NCBI GenBank assembly: GCA_035477965.1
Contig: DATIKD010000070.1
Location: 1-42,447, forward strand
Length of the DNA: 42,447 nt
Direction of reading: 5' to 3'
From: Dehalococcoidales bacterium
Lineage (GTDB): Bacteria; Chloroflexota; Dehalococcoidia; Dehalococcoidales; UBA3254
Program-made: the position numbers and the translations under genes
Notes under the pieces: generated by a model
Told to the model about the DNA's origin: nothing
Databases searched by the model: none
What the model saw: only the letters and a program-made list of their open reading frames with translations
Shown here: positions 31,712-37,054 of the stretch, piece by piece
Numbering within the stretch: position 1 is the first letter of the stretch
Layout: each line of letters begins with the position of its first letter

Positions 31712-32650
31712 TTACTTGGATTTAACCTGGTCCTTCTCACTCAGGTATTTGATCAGGCTGTATCTTTCGTTTACTACCTGCTGCAGGTCATTGATAGCCT
31801 CTTCTTTCATATGGGAGAATTTACCCGCCATCTTGAGTAACTCACCTACCGGTTTGGGTTTGGCTACTTCGTGGGTCATGCGCAGTTTTCCATTCTCTGC
31901 CTCCCACAGCGGGAAGTAGTTGGTATTGACCGCAGTCCGACAGACCTGGATTACGCTGTCCGACTCCATGCGTGAGCCTACCGGGCAAGGCGCATAAACG
32001 TGCAGGTAAACAAATCCTTCATTTTTCTTCTCTTTGGCCTTTTCCAGTTTTCTGACCAGATCGTCAAGATGGCTCACGGTAGCCGTGGCTACATAGGCCG
32101 GCTGGTGCATCAGCATGACTAAGGGCATGTACTTTGAATGGGTAGGTTTGCCAAGCCACTTTTTGCCGACGGGTGTGGTGGTGGTGGCGGCACCCTTGGG
32201 GGTACCACTGCTTCTTTGAACCCCGGTATTCATGTATCCTTCATTATCGTAGCAAATGTAGATTATGTTCTCGGCTCTCTCGGCAGCACCGCTGAGAGGC
32301 TGAAAACCCACATCGGCGGCTCCGCCATCGCCAGTCCAGCAGACAATGGTGGCTTCCTTACCGATCTTCCGGTAATATCTGGCGACTCCGGTGGCGCTGG
32401 AGGGGACTCCCGTCATCAGGCAGCCCATGGAAGCCAGCTTGTGCCATGCACCCATATTCTGCCCGAAGAGAATCGGGGCCGAGCAGCAGGGGCAGCCAAA
32501 TACGACCATATCCTTACCCAGGACTTTCGGCGCATACCTGGCCAGAATTTCCAGAGTACAGCCGGGGCACCAGGCTAACCCTGGAGAAAATTGATCTTCC
32601 TTACTGAAATATTCAAAAACTTTGCCTCTTTTTTTCGTTCCTTCTACCAT
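31712..32650 (-). CDS. porB: 2-oxoacid:ferredoxin oxidoreductase beta (TPP-binding) subunit
   Basis: 312 aa. It has WCPGCT and the TPP motif GDGGAADVGFQPLSGAAERAENIIYICYDNEGYMNTG. Confidence 0.9.
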   Translation of the reverse strand: MVEGTKKRGKVFEYFSKEDQFSPGLAWCPGCTLEILARYAPKVLGKDMVVFGCPCCSAPILFGQNMGAWHKLASMGCLMTGVPSSATGVARYYRKIGKEATIVCWTGDGGAADVGFQPLSGAAERAENIIYICYDNEGYMNTGVQRSSGTPKGAATTTTPVGKKWLGKPTHSKYMPLVMLMHQPAYVATATVSHLDDLVRKLEKAKEKKNEGFVYLHVYAPCPVGSRMESDSVIQVCRTAVNTNYFPLWEAENGKLRMTHEVAKPKPVGELLKMAGKFSHMKEEAINDLQQVVNERYSLIKYLSEKDQVKSK

Positions 32651-32651
32651 C

Positions 32652-33854
32652 TTATTTCTCCTCCATCGGTATCCAGGTTACCTCCTGATAGGGCTTGCCC
32701 TTGGCGGCGGCGTTTGTCTCATCCACCACCCGCTCAAGGTGCGGGATGGTGATGTCCAGGTTGGCCAATCCGTCAATATAGTCAAGCATGGGAATAATGC
32801 CGATATCCGGCGTAAGCGCTCTCATTTCCATGTACAGGGGGCCGCAGTCCCAGCCAAAACAAACGGCGCGGTCAAGAATGCCTATGGCTTTTTTCCCTTT
32901 GAGAGCCTTGGCCAGCCTCTGGCGGGGGAAGGGACGGAACATCCTCAATTTGATCAGGCCCACTTTTATGCCTTGTGCCCTTTTGGCATCCACCACCACG
33001 CGCGCTGTTCCGGTGACGCTTCCTGAGGTCATAATCACTATTTCGGCATCTTCGGTACGATATTCCTCAATCTGGCCTCCCCAGCTTCGACCGAAATGCT
33101 TCTTGAACTCCTTGTCTAACTCCTCCAGTTTCTGGGGCACTCTGGCCATGGCTTTGGAATGCTTATAGCGAAGCTCCATGAAGCCCTCCAGCATGCCATG
33201 GGTAGCGCAACCCGTGGGCTGCCCCGGAATTATCTTGGGGCGCTCCGGCTGCAGCTTGAGAGGCGCCAGGAAATTATCCACCCTCTCGATGGCCGGAATA
33301 TCAACTGCCTCGGCATTAAATGAAAGGTAAAAACCATCATAGCAGACCATCACCGGAAGCTGAATGTTATAATCTTCCGCCAGACGGAAAGCCAAAATCA
33401 CGGTATCCATGATCTCCTGACAGTTTTCAACGCCTATCTGGACCCAACCGCCTTCCCGCACTGTCCAGGTATCCTGCTGGCCGCAGGAGACGGAAAATAT
33501 ACTGGTTAATTCTCGGTTGACGTTGACCATCACTACCGGGGCGCGGTAACCGGCTGCCACCAGGTAGGCATCAAACATAAAAGCCAGACCCGCTGCGGAA
33601 GTGGCTGTGAAAGCGCGTCCACCAGCCATACTGGCACCGATAACGGCGTTCATGGCCGAGTTTTCTCCCTCGGCTTCTACCATTTCGGCATCGAGTATAC
33701 CATCAGCGTGGAATTGGGAAAGCGTTTCTACCACCTCGCTCATAGGGGTTATAGGATAAGTACCCACCACATCCGGACGGCAAAGCATAGCCCCGTAAGC
33801 GGCGGCTGAGTTACCGGTAATTACTCTCACCTGACTGCTATTTTTAGTTGTCAT
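32652..33854 (-). CDS. porA: 2-oxoacid:ferredoxin oxidoreductase alpha subunit
   Basis: 400 aa. The N-terminus ...ITGNSAAAYGAMLCRPDVVGTYPITPMSEV is typical of PorA/VorA. Confidence 0.9.
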   Translation of the reverse strand: MTTKNSSQVRVITGNSAAAYGAMLCRPDVVGTYPITPMSEVVETLSQFHADGILDAEMVEAEGENSAMNAVIGASMAGGRAFTATSAAGLAFMFDAYLVAAGYRAPVVMVNVNRELTSIFSVSCGQQDTWTVREGGWVQIGVENCQEIMDTVILAFRLAEDYNIQLPVMVCYDGFYLSFNAEAVDIPAIERVDNFLAPLKLQPERPKIIPGQPTGCATHGMLEGFMELRYKHSKAMARVPQKLEELDKEFKKHFGRSWGGQIEEYRTEDAEIVIMTSGSVTGTARVVVDAKRAQGIKVGLIKLRMFRPFPRQRLAKALKGKKAIGILDRAVCFGWDCGPLYMEMRALTPDIGIIPMLDYIDGLANLDITIPHLERVVDETNAAAKGKPYQEVTWIPMEEK

Positions 33855-34137
33855 CGAACTCTCCTTCAGGCCGCATTACAATAGCTTTTTTGGGGCATTC
33901 TGTGACACAGATGCCGCAGCCTTTGCAATAAGCCAGATTTATAGTGAAAACGTCACTGGCTTCTTTTATACATTGCGGGGGACAGTACATTGCACAAAGC
34001 CCGCAACTATTACATTTTGCTGCATCCAGCACCGGCCGCTTGGTCCGCCAGCTACCCGTATCCAGGCAAAGAAACGATACATTGGCGTCAGACCAGGCGT
34101 TCTCCGTCTTAAATATATTTTCATATTTTTTTACCAT
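33844..34137 (-). CDS. porD: 2-oxoacid:ferredoxin oxidoreductase delta subunit (2x[4Fe-4S] ferredoxin)
   Basis: 97 aa. The cluster motifs are CNSCGLCAMYCP and CKGCGICVTECP. It overlaps porA by 11 nt. Confidence 0.9.
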   Translation of the reverse strand: MVKKYENIFKTENAWSDANVSFLCLDTGSWRTKRPVLDAAKCNSCGLCAMYCPPQCIKEASDVFTINLAYCKGCGICVTECPKKAIVMRPEGEFDDN

Positions 34138-34165
34138 ACAATTTCCTCCACTTCTTTATAACCTC

Positions 34166-34663
34166 CTATCCAGGGTAGAACCTTTCCGCGCTCCTGATTT
34201 TCTTTGAAGAATAACTCAGTCGGGGCAGTCCCCGCTTGTAACCGGCTCTGGCGTCAATCAGGTAGCGAATACAACGAAAAGGCGGGTACCAGGGATGTCC
34301 GGCCCGATTTTAGTATCTTTTTTTTACGCCATAGGCGACACCTCCTTTTCTAAAAGTTTTATCAGGCTATTTTAAATGAAAGTTGGACCCGATTTTACCC
34401 CTGTGAACAGGGCAGAGAGCAAAAAGTGGCCGGTTGATGGCTGACTGAGATTCGCGATTATTAATTAGAACTTCCTCCCGTGTTGTTTGACCCTTAAAAC
34501 GGGAGATCGTCATAAGGCTGATCACTCGTCTTAAAAAACCACAAATACCAATTCTGTCAGCTCGTTTACCCTTGGACAGGCAAACCTCCGGCAGGCGCCT
34601 GGCTACCCGAACGGTTCTCTGCCCTACCCTGATGTTTATCCCTGTTTCGATCAAATTCCTCAT
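34166..34663 (-). pseudogene. Decayed porG (gamma subunit) remnant split over two frames
   Basis: The ORF 34367-34663 keeps the PorG N-terminal spacing I-R-x-x-G-Q-x8-L-x-E-x2-L-x2-GK-x8-G-x2-R but lacks the GRGGQG glycine motif and is Arg-rich. A second frame (34309-34166) reads ...CIRYLIDARAGYKRGLPRL, resembling the PorG C-terminal DA...KRGxP region. The call rests on my recollection of the family consensus. Confidence 0.4.
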
Positions 34664-34708
34664 TTCAATCTCTATAGTTGTTGCGACCTTTCGTATTACC
34701 CTTATATT

Positions 34709-34757
34709 AAAAAAGAGGCTTGAAAGCTGTCCTGGGGCAACAGCAATCTAAAGCCTC
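34709..34757 (-). terminator. Rho-independent terminator closing the orphan transcription unit
   Basis: The minus strand reads GAGGCUU-uagauu-GCUGU-ugccccagg-ACAGC-uuuc-AAGCCUC followed by UUUUUU (plus-strand A-run 34709-34714). Confidence 0.65.
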
Positions 34758-34909
34758 GTTTCTTCGGTATGAATGAATTTTAACCCCGCCCGCCGGGTAT
34801 GTATGATGATCGTTTTACCAGAGTTTAGTCTATAGGCTTCTCCACCCCTAATTTTTTATCTATAGCTATTGCTGTGCCTTATTCCGGCATCAGCAGGCTT
34901 ACTTCTAAA

Positions 34910-35167
34910 TCAAACTCGAATGGACAAAGTCATGGATGAGACTGGGAGCAATGGAAATCTTTTTGCAGAAGTCCTGGAAACTGGCAACCTTACTGAACGT
35001 CTCGAACACCCTGAACCTGGGCTGGTTGTTCGGAGGCGTGTCATGTTCATCATTTCGTCAGTCGATTTTTCGCGGCAATTCTGGTTGAAGCCCAGTGTGA
35101 AACGGCCGCTTGCAAGGGGGCGGAAGACTTTCTGGAAAGTCATGTTATAGTTCTGGCCAATACTCAT
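34910..35167 (-). CDS. Small hypothetical ORF (85 aa), probably frame-disrupted
   Basis: AGGTGA lies 4 nt upstream. The ATG overlaps the TAA of an upstream open frame (TAATG). The first ~40 aa look protein-like (MSIGQNYNMTFQKVFRPLASGRFTLGFNQN). The tail is Arg/Ser-rich. The -1 frame (35057-34905) reads ...FRVFETFSKVASFQDFCKKISIAPSLIHDFVHSSLI. Confidence 0.3.
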   Translation of the reverse strand: MSIGQNYNMTFQKVFRPLASGRFTLGFNQNCREKSTDEMMNMTRLRTTSPGSGCSRRSVRLPVSRTSAKRFPLLPVSSMTLSIRV

Positions 35168-35444
35168 TACTTCACCTGCAGTACGTTTATGCGTTCCTGG
35201 CCTGGTTTGAGCATTACGGAACTACCAAACCCCAATGGGTAACCTGATCACCCTGTTACTACCAGACGGCGGGTATCTACCCGGCGCGCCTCCGCGTCAA
35301 ACCGGATATTATCCGGAGCCGGTCCAGTCAAGATTAAACGAAAGAAAGACTGATAACATCGGGAAATAACACTGACCTGCTATTCTACAGAGGAATACCG
35401 GTAAGAGACCGGAAATATGTAATAGATAGCGTGTAATTTATTTC

Positions 35445-35473
35445 ATTATATAATTTTATTCGGTCAGTGTCAA
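35445..35473 (-). promoter_or_regulatory. Perfect consensus sigma70 promoter TTGACA-17 nt-TATAAT
   Basis: On the minus strand TTGACA is the reverse complement of 35468-35473, the spacer runs 35467-35451 (17 nt), and TATAAT is the reverse complement of 35445-35450. It fires toward 34.7 kb. Confidence 0.65.
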
Positions 35474-35536
35474 AAAAGCACTGGTTGGGCCTGATTCGAG
35501 TCAGCCCCGAAGAAATAACCGGTGAATTCTCCTGTT

Positions 35537-37054
35537 TTACACTGAAGGTTTAATTTCAAGTCCGACTATTTTTTCAGCAGAATCGTAAATTACCCGGATA
35601 ATGATGACGGCCCTGGTAAAAACACAGGTGACAGAAACATAATCCAGATTATCTTTATTAACTGAAGATATGCTTCGGATGCTTTGGAAATTACCAACCT
35701 GACTTATGAGAGAAGCCCAGCTATCCCTGATAGCCGCAACCGGTAAGTGGGCAGTAAAAGTTTTGTCCAGAAATCCGGCTGCCAGGTCGAATTTTTCTGC
35801 CACCATGAGTTCTATCCAGGCTTGCGCCTTTCCCTCCAGGAGTTTATTAGAGTTTTTGGCTGTACCGGTAGCTGAAGTGACCTGAGCAGGGGAATCATCC
35901 AAACCGGTCATTTGCAGAATAGCCTCTTCCAGCGCCGCCGAACCATCGCCGCAACTGGTGAATCCGGCAAAACCAATATCCAGGGCCGGGTAAACCGCTA
36001 TTGTGGCATAGAAAGTACCGCCGGAACCGCTGGCAGTGCTTAAGCTGCTCCCCTGAAAAGTGGAAATTGCCCAGCCGTAACCCATATTGACCGTACCTTT
36101 CTGTCCGGACATTTGAGGATTATAAGCATACATATCACTGATCTTTTCGCTCAAATGCAGGGTATGGATATTGTCATAACCCTTTTTATCCAGAAGCCGG
36201 CCATGACCCTGGAGACCGGCCAGATTTTCCTGGACATAAAGCGCAAAGTCGGTAATACTGCAATGCACCCCGCCGGCCGGATTCATCCAGTTCGGGAAAA
36301 TATACGCGTTATTTTCCAGTTCCTGCGGTTGGGGTAATCCACCGGCCGCCGGATAATGTCCCCGGGGCTGATCAGGTTCGGCCGAGGAGGCCGGCCAACC
36401 CCCGATTTTGGCCTTTTTCATACCCAGGGGTCGGAATATTCTTTCTTGCAGGAAGGCTTCGTAAGGCCTGTCTGCAACCGCATCGATTATATGTCCGGCA
36501 ATCGACCATCCGGTATTGGAATAGACGGCTTTTGTACCCGGTTTGTTAATTGGGGCCAGGTTTAGTGCGAATTTAGCCACTTCATGGCGCTGTTCCTCAG
36601 GTTTGGAAAAAGCGGCCGGGATGTCATGCCAGAGTTTCTGCCAAACTGCGGGGGCTTCGGTATCCGACCTTTGTAAAGGCAAAATGCCGGCCTGGTTTAA
36701 TAATAGAGCGGCGAGGCTGACCTGGCGGTATTCTTCTCGCATGGGTATATCCGGCAAAGCTTTTTCAAGAGGAGTGTCATATCTGATTTTCTCTTCATTC
36801 ACCAGCATCTGGATAAGCAGGGCCGTCATTGTCTTGGTGGTGGACCCGATGTGAAAACGGCTATCGATTTTGACAGCTTTGTTTTGCCCGTAAACAACTG
36901 TTCCTGCACAGGCCTTGGCGATTATTTTATTACTGTTGACCAGGGCACAGGCCATAGCGGGCTGATGGTAACGTTCACGAATTGACTTGAGGGTATTCAG
37001 TAATTCACTGTCACCGGTTATCAACAGCTGCCAGCCGGCCTTATTTGTTTTCAC
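35537..37054 (-). CDS. Serine hydrolase (class C beta-lactamase / PBP family) with a C-terminal DUF3887-like domain
   Basis: 505 aa with a GTG start. The SxxK motif is FHIGSTTKTMTALL. The C-terminal ~100 aa form a separate small domain. Confidence 0.8.
   Translation of the reverse strand: MKTNKAGWQLLITGDSELLNTLKSIRERYHQPAMACALVNSNKIIAKACAGTVVYGQNKAVKIDSRFHIGSTTKTMTALLIQMLVNEEKIRYDTPLEKALPDIPMREEYRQVSLAALLLNQAGILPLQRSDTEAPAVWQKLWHDIPAAFSKPEEQRHEVAKFALNLAPINKPGTKAVYSNTGWSIAGHIIDAVADRPYEAFLQERIFRPLGMKKAKIGGWPASSAEPDQPRGHYPAAGGLPQPQELENNAYIFPNWMNPAGGVHCSITDFALYVQENLAGLQGHGRLLDKKGYDNIHTLHLSEKISDMYAYNPQMSGQKGTVNMGYGWAISTFQGSSLSTASGSGGTFYATIAVYPALDIGFAGFTSCGDGSAALEEAILQMTGLDDSPAQVTSATGTAKNSNKLLEGKAQAWIELMVAEKFDLAAGFLDKTFTAHLPVAAIRDSWASLISQVGNFQSIRSISSVNKDNLDYVSVTCVFTRAVIIIRVIYDSAEKIVGLEIKPSV

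Follow-up and report, generated by a model that had tools for sequence, protein, structure and literature searches.

Debris of a second carB gene beside a decayed porG, behind a probably active promoter, in a member of the Dehalococcoidales

A small number of highly degraded pseudogenes survive in the genomes of bacteria, as analysed in Salmonella (PMC2916853), and pseudogenes in Sodalis are transcribed at reduced levels (PMC7067036). The locus we describe here resembles such remnants in its stops, its frame changes and its large internal deletions. It resembles them also in that an intact paralogue elsewhere in the genome, on contig C222, buffers the loss, and in that residual transcription signals are plausible. 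It is unlike them in other respects. The remnant is very old, being 40-45% identical to intact copies that are ~85% identical to one another, and it lies between a promoter that matches the consensus at 12/12 positions and a clean terminator, away from the locus where relatives keep the gene.

The gene in question is carB (NF003671/TIGR01369), which encodes the large subunit of carbamoyl-phosphate synthase. The locus agrees with one lineage of this gene, here called type A, in having homology over residues ~335-461 and 679-718 that is collinear and on one strand, but it differs in that invariant residues are replaced and the frames are broken. The other obvious comparison is with the structured RNAs and riboswitch leaders of Rfam, and here the likeness is one of outline only: a promoter, several hundred ORF-poor nucleotides and a terminator. 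The locus departs from these RNAs in having no covariance-model match, no excess fold stability and no homologues. A stretch of this kind, with its small hairpins, mimics a new RNA gene by eye, and it is the translated search that shows carB debris. We regard the unit as an ordinary pseudogene relic, an instance of a known phenomenon, and not as a new structured RNA.

The window is the whole stretch of DNA that we analysed, 42,447 nucleotides from a Dehalococcoidales bacterium. Its source is a metagenome-assembled genome (MAG) of 2.42 Mb in 401 contigs, 88.6% complete and with 2.8% contamination. The features that matter to the argument are these, in the order in which the minus strand reads them.

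35537-37054, minus strand: serine hydrolase of 505 aa, PF00144 plus DUF3887 by Pfam, beta-lactamase family; the upstream neighbour
35473-35445, minus strand: perfect sigma-70-type promoter, TTGACA-17 nt-TATAAT, 12/12 hexamer match
35306-35438, minus strand: 5' segment of 133 nt, 40% G+C, intergenic-like, no matches
35305-34777, minus strand: carB pseudogene body, ~70% of the unit, three collinear pieces in three frames
35027-35305, minus strand: carB piece 1, residues 335-428 of type-A carB, from tblastn, profile, NCBIfam and DNA matches
34929-35024, minus strand: carB piece 2, residues ~430-461, in a different frame; a weak but collinear match
34777-34896, minus strand: carB piece 3, residues 679-718, in a third frame with stops, from tblastn and profile
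34910-35167, minus strand: residual 85-codon ORF; its start codon is the Met within carB's conserved GEVMSIG motif
34764-34709, minus strand: intrinsic-terminator-like hairpin plus U6, from the fold and the U tract
34134-34648, minus strand: porG pseudogene (gamma subunit of 2-oxoacid:ferredoxin oxidoreductase), pieces in three frames
31712-34137, minus strand: intact porD, porA and porB, the only intact co-oriented genes downstream

The reading that we favour, and hold with moderate confidence, is that an old fragment of a carB pseudogene lies next to a dead porG, downstream of a promoter that probably still works, and that the transcript most likely has no function. The first-pass annotation had described the span from promoter to terminator as one without an intact gene, and this is what we find. 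The longest frames in 34138-35536 are 98, 93 and 85 aa, and the whole interval from the hydrolase to porD, whose start is at 34137, contains no ORF of more than 98 codons. The 98-codon frame, which lies beyond the terminator, is itself the porG remnant.

The identity of the unit's body is established by translated searches, and several kinds of search agree on it. Tblastn with a relative's carB aligned residues 335-430 to 35305-35021 at 40% identity with two in-frame stops (E 4e-17), residues 427-459 just downstream in another frame, and residues 681-716 to 34890-34783 in a third frame (E 7e-4). A whole-genome protein search gave E 2e-14 with 2 internal stops. A profile built from 13 intact type-A carB proteins of 13 genomes scores 66 bits on piece 1 (E 9e-23) and 16.1 bits on piece 3 (E 1e-7); its score on piece 2, -3.0 bits (E 0.06), is not significant alone. 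The carB equivalog model NF003671 matches over its positions 366-423 with E 2e-5; with only a fragment to score, it reaches 22 bits where the cutoff is 599. Pfam gave no match on the three minus-strand frames; its domain models do not seem to cover the regions of carB that survive here.

The comparisons at the DNA level point to the same gene. A search of 40 relatives returned one match, 70% over 121 nt, and it lies inside a carB gene. When 34664-35536 was searched against 363 genomes of the order, DNA 66-76% identical to piece 1 was found only in carB genes, in 11 of the 362 other genomes, with one further match of 32 nt at 88%. Piece 3 has a collinear 42-nt match in the carB of genome G201 that is 77% identical, though with E 1.4 it is not significant alone.

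What survives of the gene is small. Piece 1 alone is interrupted by a TGA and a TAG and is one codon short through a deletion, ~218 codons are absent between pieces 2 and 3, and piece 3 corresponds to the start of the second ATP-grasp half. Altogether ~170 of ~1065 codons are left, in ~500 surviving nucleotides, in place of a full-length frame of ~1060 aa with two ATP-grasp halves. The body of the unit is debris of a type-A carB and cannot encode the enzyme. It had been suggested beforehand that the region might be the fossil of a small operon whose signals survived. The fossil is real in essence; the small operon is not, for what is preserved is part of a single large gene, a second paralogue of carB.

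It is important to realize that the Dehalococcoidales contain two carB lineages, ~45-47% identical to each other, and that the remnant belongs with only one of them. Type-A proteins are 40-45% identical to the remnant, against 29% for the intact carB of its own genome (C222:4201-7392), and on this basis we reject the idea that the remnant is a recent copy of its own carB. The intact type-A genes of 13 genomes are 79-95% identical to one another over residues 335-428, with a mean of 85%, and many residues that are invariant among them are replaced in the remnant. The genome studied here and both other genomes of its genus have non-type-A carB only. G008 and G201 have both lineages, in G008 clearly one each. 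We take the remnant, from these sequence comparisons, to be the last trace of a paralogue that the genus has lost, and to be old. The lineage would once have carried a second, type-A carB, which relatives in the family keep intact and the genus lost; what survived would be three collinear pieces shaped by substitutions, stops, frame changes and an internal deletion.

The first-pass annotation had allowed that the region would be simple pseudogene decay if relatives carried an intact protein gene here. In substance they do, with the intact carB standing at other loci. This difference in position counts against the explanation that we favour. The type-A loci of G201, G005, G008 and G004 share no neighbours with the window, so decay in place at an ancestral carB locus is unsupported. 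As for the signals, comparison with the regions upstream of type-A carB found no link of the promoter or terminator to carB's own, and the promoter and 5' segment show no similarity to the regions upstream of the 13 type-A carB genes, so we do not regard them as carB's own leader. The 5' segment (35306-35438) has no carB profile match and no Rfam match, and it is not similar to the regions upstream of type-A carB or porG in relatives.

Some details of the intact loci may be useful to others. Two carB genes are present in G008, G201, G088, G076, G115, G117 and G177, and type-A carB of relatives can be found at L089:9058-12255, L036:9494-12691 and L037:8163-11363. A small ORF of ~87-138 codons, conserved in at least five genomes, directly precedes type-A carB; it is at L036:9160-9465 in G008 and has equivalents in G005, G117, G143 and G198. 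Its pattern is roughly R-x-EAY-x-Y ... L-x-ELI-x-LKEG-x-x-DP-x-x-ALV ... LV-x-PF. This conserved ORF of ~90 aa is absent from the unit in the window.

The second dead gene is porG. Residues 3-86, 123-138 and 172-181 of an intact PorG align to the remnant, spread over three frames, and in place of the lost GRGGQG motif the remnant reads RVGQRT. The porD ribosome-binding site at the 3' end of the remnant is conserved. In the nearest relative, Dehalococcoidales bacterium H81_827 (L039), porG is intact at 182 aa and is preceded by a MarR-like gene; we considered the unit as a remnant of that gene and found no trace of it. Over its whole length the porG remnant is 55% identical in DNA to the relative's gene, with 7 indel runs. 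Against the same relative, identity is 47% at the fourfold-degenerate sites of porA and 49% at the third codon positions of porD. Since the porG identity is near that of the fourfold sites, the porG remnant has changed at a roughly neutral rate during most of the period after the two lineages parted.

The intact part of the cluster is a different matter. Its porA is 84% identical to that of H81_827, the best in the genome collection, and in a metagenome scan no match to porA exceeded 68% identity. The nearest other porA relatives are in Actinomycetota and Gaiellales MAGs at 61-67% identity, and most other Dehalococcoidales are more distant, which hints that the por cluster of the window may have been acquired by horizontal transfer. 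A complete paralogous porGDAB is present on contig C240 (L024:4847-5395), with a porA 59% identical to the one in the window. The porDAB of the window has no working gamma subunit gene, and the PorG of C240 might substitute. For this lineage the locus therefore documents several things at once: the loss of one of two carB lineages, the decay of porG beside an intact porDAB, and 1.3 kb of dead DNA that a small genome has kept for an unusually long time.

The promoter is the feature that sets this debris apart, and it is as the first-pass annotation described it: a perfect TTGACA-17-TATAAT on the minus strand. No other site in the window matches at 12/12 positions. It does lie downstream of the hydrolase stop codon (35537-35539), at a distance of 63 nt and not 65 as claimed. 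Allowing one mismatch or none to TTGACA/TATAAT, there are 2 matches in the window against 0.18 expected from shuffles. A T6 run lies directly 5' of the -35 hexamer and overlaps it, and the predicted transcription start is near 35438. Counted over the whole genome with spacers of 16-18 nt, there are 12 perfect sites against 1.07 expected from base composition, an 11-fold enrichment, and most of the remaining 11 have an ORF 30-290 nt downstream. In this organism a perfect site is thus usually a real promoter. Since perfect sites are enriched and nearly all the others precede genes, we think the one at 35473-35445 is probably active.

A rough Jukes-Cantor calculation, which assumes that porG died soon after the split from G201, turns the 55% porG identity into ~0.34 substitutions per site on this lineage. 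At ~0.34 substitutions per site, 12 neutral positions would all be intact ~2% of the time, which suggests that the promoter arose after the debris or that selection maintains it, a point against the explanation that we favour. The still-perfect promoter taken together with the clean terminator hints at the same two alternatives, selection or an origin younger than the debris.

The branched hairpin with U6 that had been reported ~730 nt downstream of the promoter is also there, as a putative terminator. Its basal stem is G+C-rich, with GAGGCUU at 34757-34751 pairing with AAGCCUC at 34721-34715 over 7 bp. Above this there is an internal loop and then a 6-bp apical stem, and U6 follows the hairpin directly at 34714-34709. 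An A-rich run upstream can pair with the U tract. The fold has an MFE of -25.3 kcal/mol and a z of -2.29, with 7/200 shuffles as stable. The hairpin is longer and more branched than a typical intrinsic terminator, and a simple terminator scanner with a loop limit of 8 nt missed it (34764-34709). On the explanation we favour, the promoter, 133 nt upstream of the remnant, is predicted to be able to fire still, and the hairpin and U6 at the 3' end of the remnant would stop most of the transcripts, so that the product would be a functionless transcript of pseudogene debris.

The most serious rival is that selection has kept this promoter as the working promoter of porDAB, with the debris serving as a 1.3-kb leader and the terminator being leaky or conditionally read through. 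We consider this possible though unlikely. Several points speak for it: porD, porA and porB, all intact, read in the same direction as the promoter, the ribosome-binding site of porD has been preserved within a decayed porG, and the promoter is perfect while the neutral sequence around it is near saturation. Between 35473 and the porD start there is no other minus-strand candidate that reaches 9/12, although promoters of this host need not score 9/12 and another start site is possible. TTGACA-type promoters precede porG by 130-210 nt in the paralogous por operons of this genome and of relatives, and without the carB debris and terminator the promoter of the window would sit ~185 nt from the porG start. 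However, a transcript from the promoter would have to pass what is predicted to be a good intrinsic terminator before it reached porD, and the nearest relative has its porG 78 nt after the MarR-like gene without such a promoter. There is also no sequence similarity between the promoter and 5' segment and the por leaders of relatives, so we reject them as a por leader on that comparison. If the promoter does drive porDAB through the debris, the locus would be a tidy example of how promoter retention shapes which junk DNA persists.

Selection could also be acting on the transcript itself. It is improbable, in our opinion, that the unit as a whole is kept by selection, whether as a young regulatory RNA or as a conditional attenuator or insulator of porDAB, made from pseudogene debris; in line with it, the 12/12 promoter and the clean terminator have outlived nearby sequence that is close to saturation. 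The related proposal that the transcript has been co-opted as a functional non-coding RNA, be it a regulatory RNA from carB debris or a regulated attenuator, we find very improbable. In its favour, neither the promoter nor the terminator shares the decay of the sequence around it, and the 730-nt fold has a z of -1.9 to -3.0, varying with the number of shuffles (z -3.05 with 20 shuffles, z -1.9 with 40). But this z is within the spread of coding controls: for 14 control stretches of 730 nt from the same window, mostly coding, z ran from -3.9 to +0.55, and 3/14 were about as low as the unit or lower.

The case for a structured RNA had been made mainly by eye, from a 5' part of ~270 nt said to be rich in helices. 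The named short helices, CCGGAUAAUAUCCGG, CGGGUAGAUACCCG, GUAAC/GUUAC, GGUUUG/CAAACC and GUUCC/GGAAC, are present, all at 35313-35190, and nearly all of them fall inside the decayed coding sequence of carB piece 1. Their excess over chance did not hold up, for the first 269 nt of the unit show no excess fold stability (z -0.67, with 51/200 dinucleotide shuffles as stable) and so fold like shuffled sequence. The structure of the unit is no more than chance gives, and such helices are expected of any 270 nt of this composition.

The database comparisons that had been called for agree with this. Rfam has no match at its gathering score in the whole window, none even at E <= 10 in 34150-35560, and no gathering-score match at three loci where relatives have type-A carB. 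The 363 genomes of the order contain no homologue of the unit, and this holds for the promoter, the 5' segment and the terminator; the plasmid and phage collections contain no match to the unit either. With no conservation and no covariation, no Rfam match and no excess folding, the structured non-coding RNA that the first-pass annotation had proposed found no support. Neither did its alternative of a riboswitch-like leader followed by a small protein, which lacks the same Rfam match and excess folding and whose 85-aa ORF has no small-protein relatives. A repeat or mobile element is rejected as well: the sequence is single-copy in the genome and tblastx finds nothing else there.

That the unit expresses a small protein from the 85-codon ORF at 35167-34910 is highly unlikely. 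The ORF does exist, and it has an AGGTGA Shine-Dalgarno-like sequence 4 nt upstream of its start. Against this, its first ~45 codons are carB residues 382-428, after which it leaves the carB frame and runs into Arg/Ser-rich sequence. It has no Pfam match, and among 5.8 billion clusters there are no related proteins of similar length.

An assembly artefact, a chimeric join in a MAG as fragmented and incomplete as this one and with no second record of the contig, is extremely unlikely, since the many substitutions, stops and indels over 1.3 kb are unlike a mis-join, the decay of porG runs smoothly into intact porD, and the G+C content shifts at sensible boundaries only.

The old carB fragment, as we read it, lies in a part of the chromosome that is an accessory patchwork. 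In 200 genomes of the order the serine hydrolase upstream has no relatives at E <= 1e-30. Its closest homologue (GCA_016294925.1) is 59% identical and stands in an unrelated context, with a MerR regulator and a CoA-transferase alongside. It is probably a recently acquired accessory gene. Closer strains did not turn up: an exact look-up with porD and a metagenome scan with the hydrolase were both empty. Downstream of the hydrolase stop, at 35487-35508, there is a hairpin GGGGCUGA-CUCGAA-UCAGGCCC, and the T6 run at 35472-35477 begins 9 nt later. Together they may form a non-canonical terminator for the hydrolase gene, or the T6 may simply be an A/T tract upstream of the promoter.
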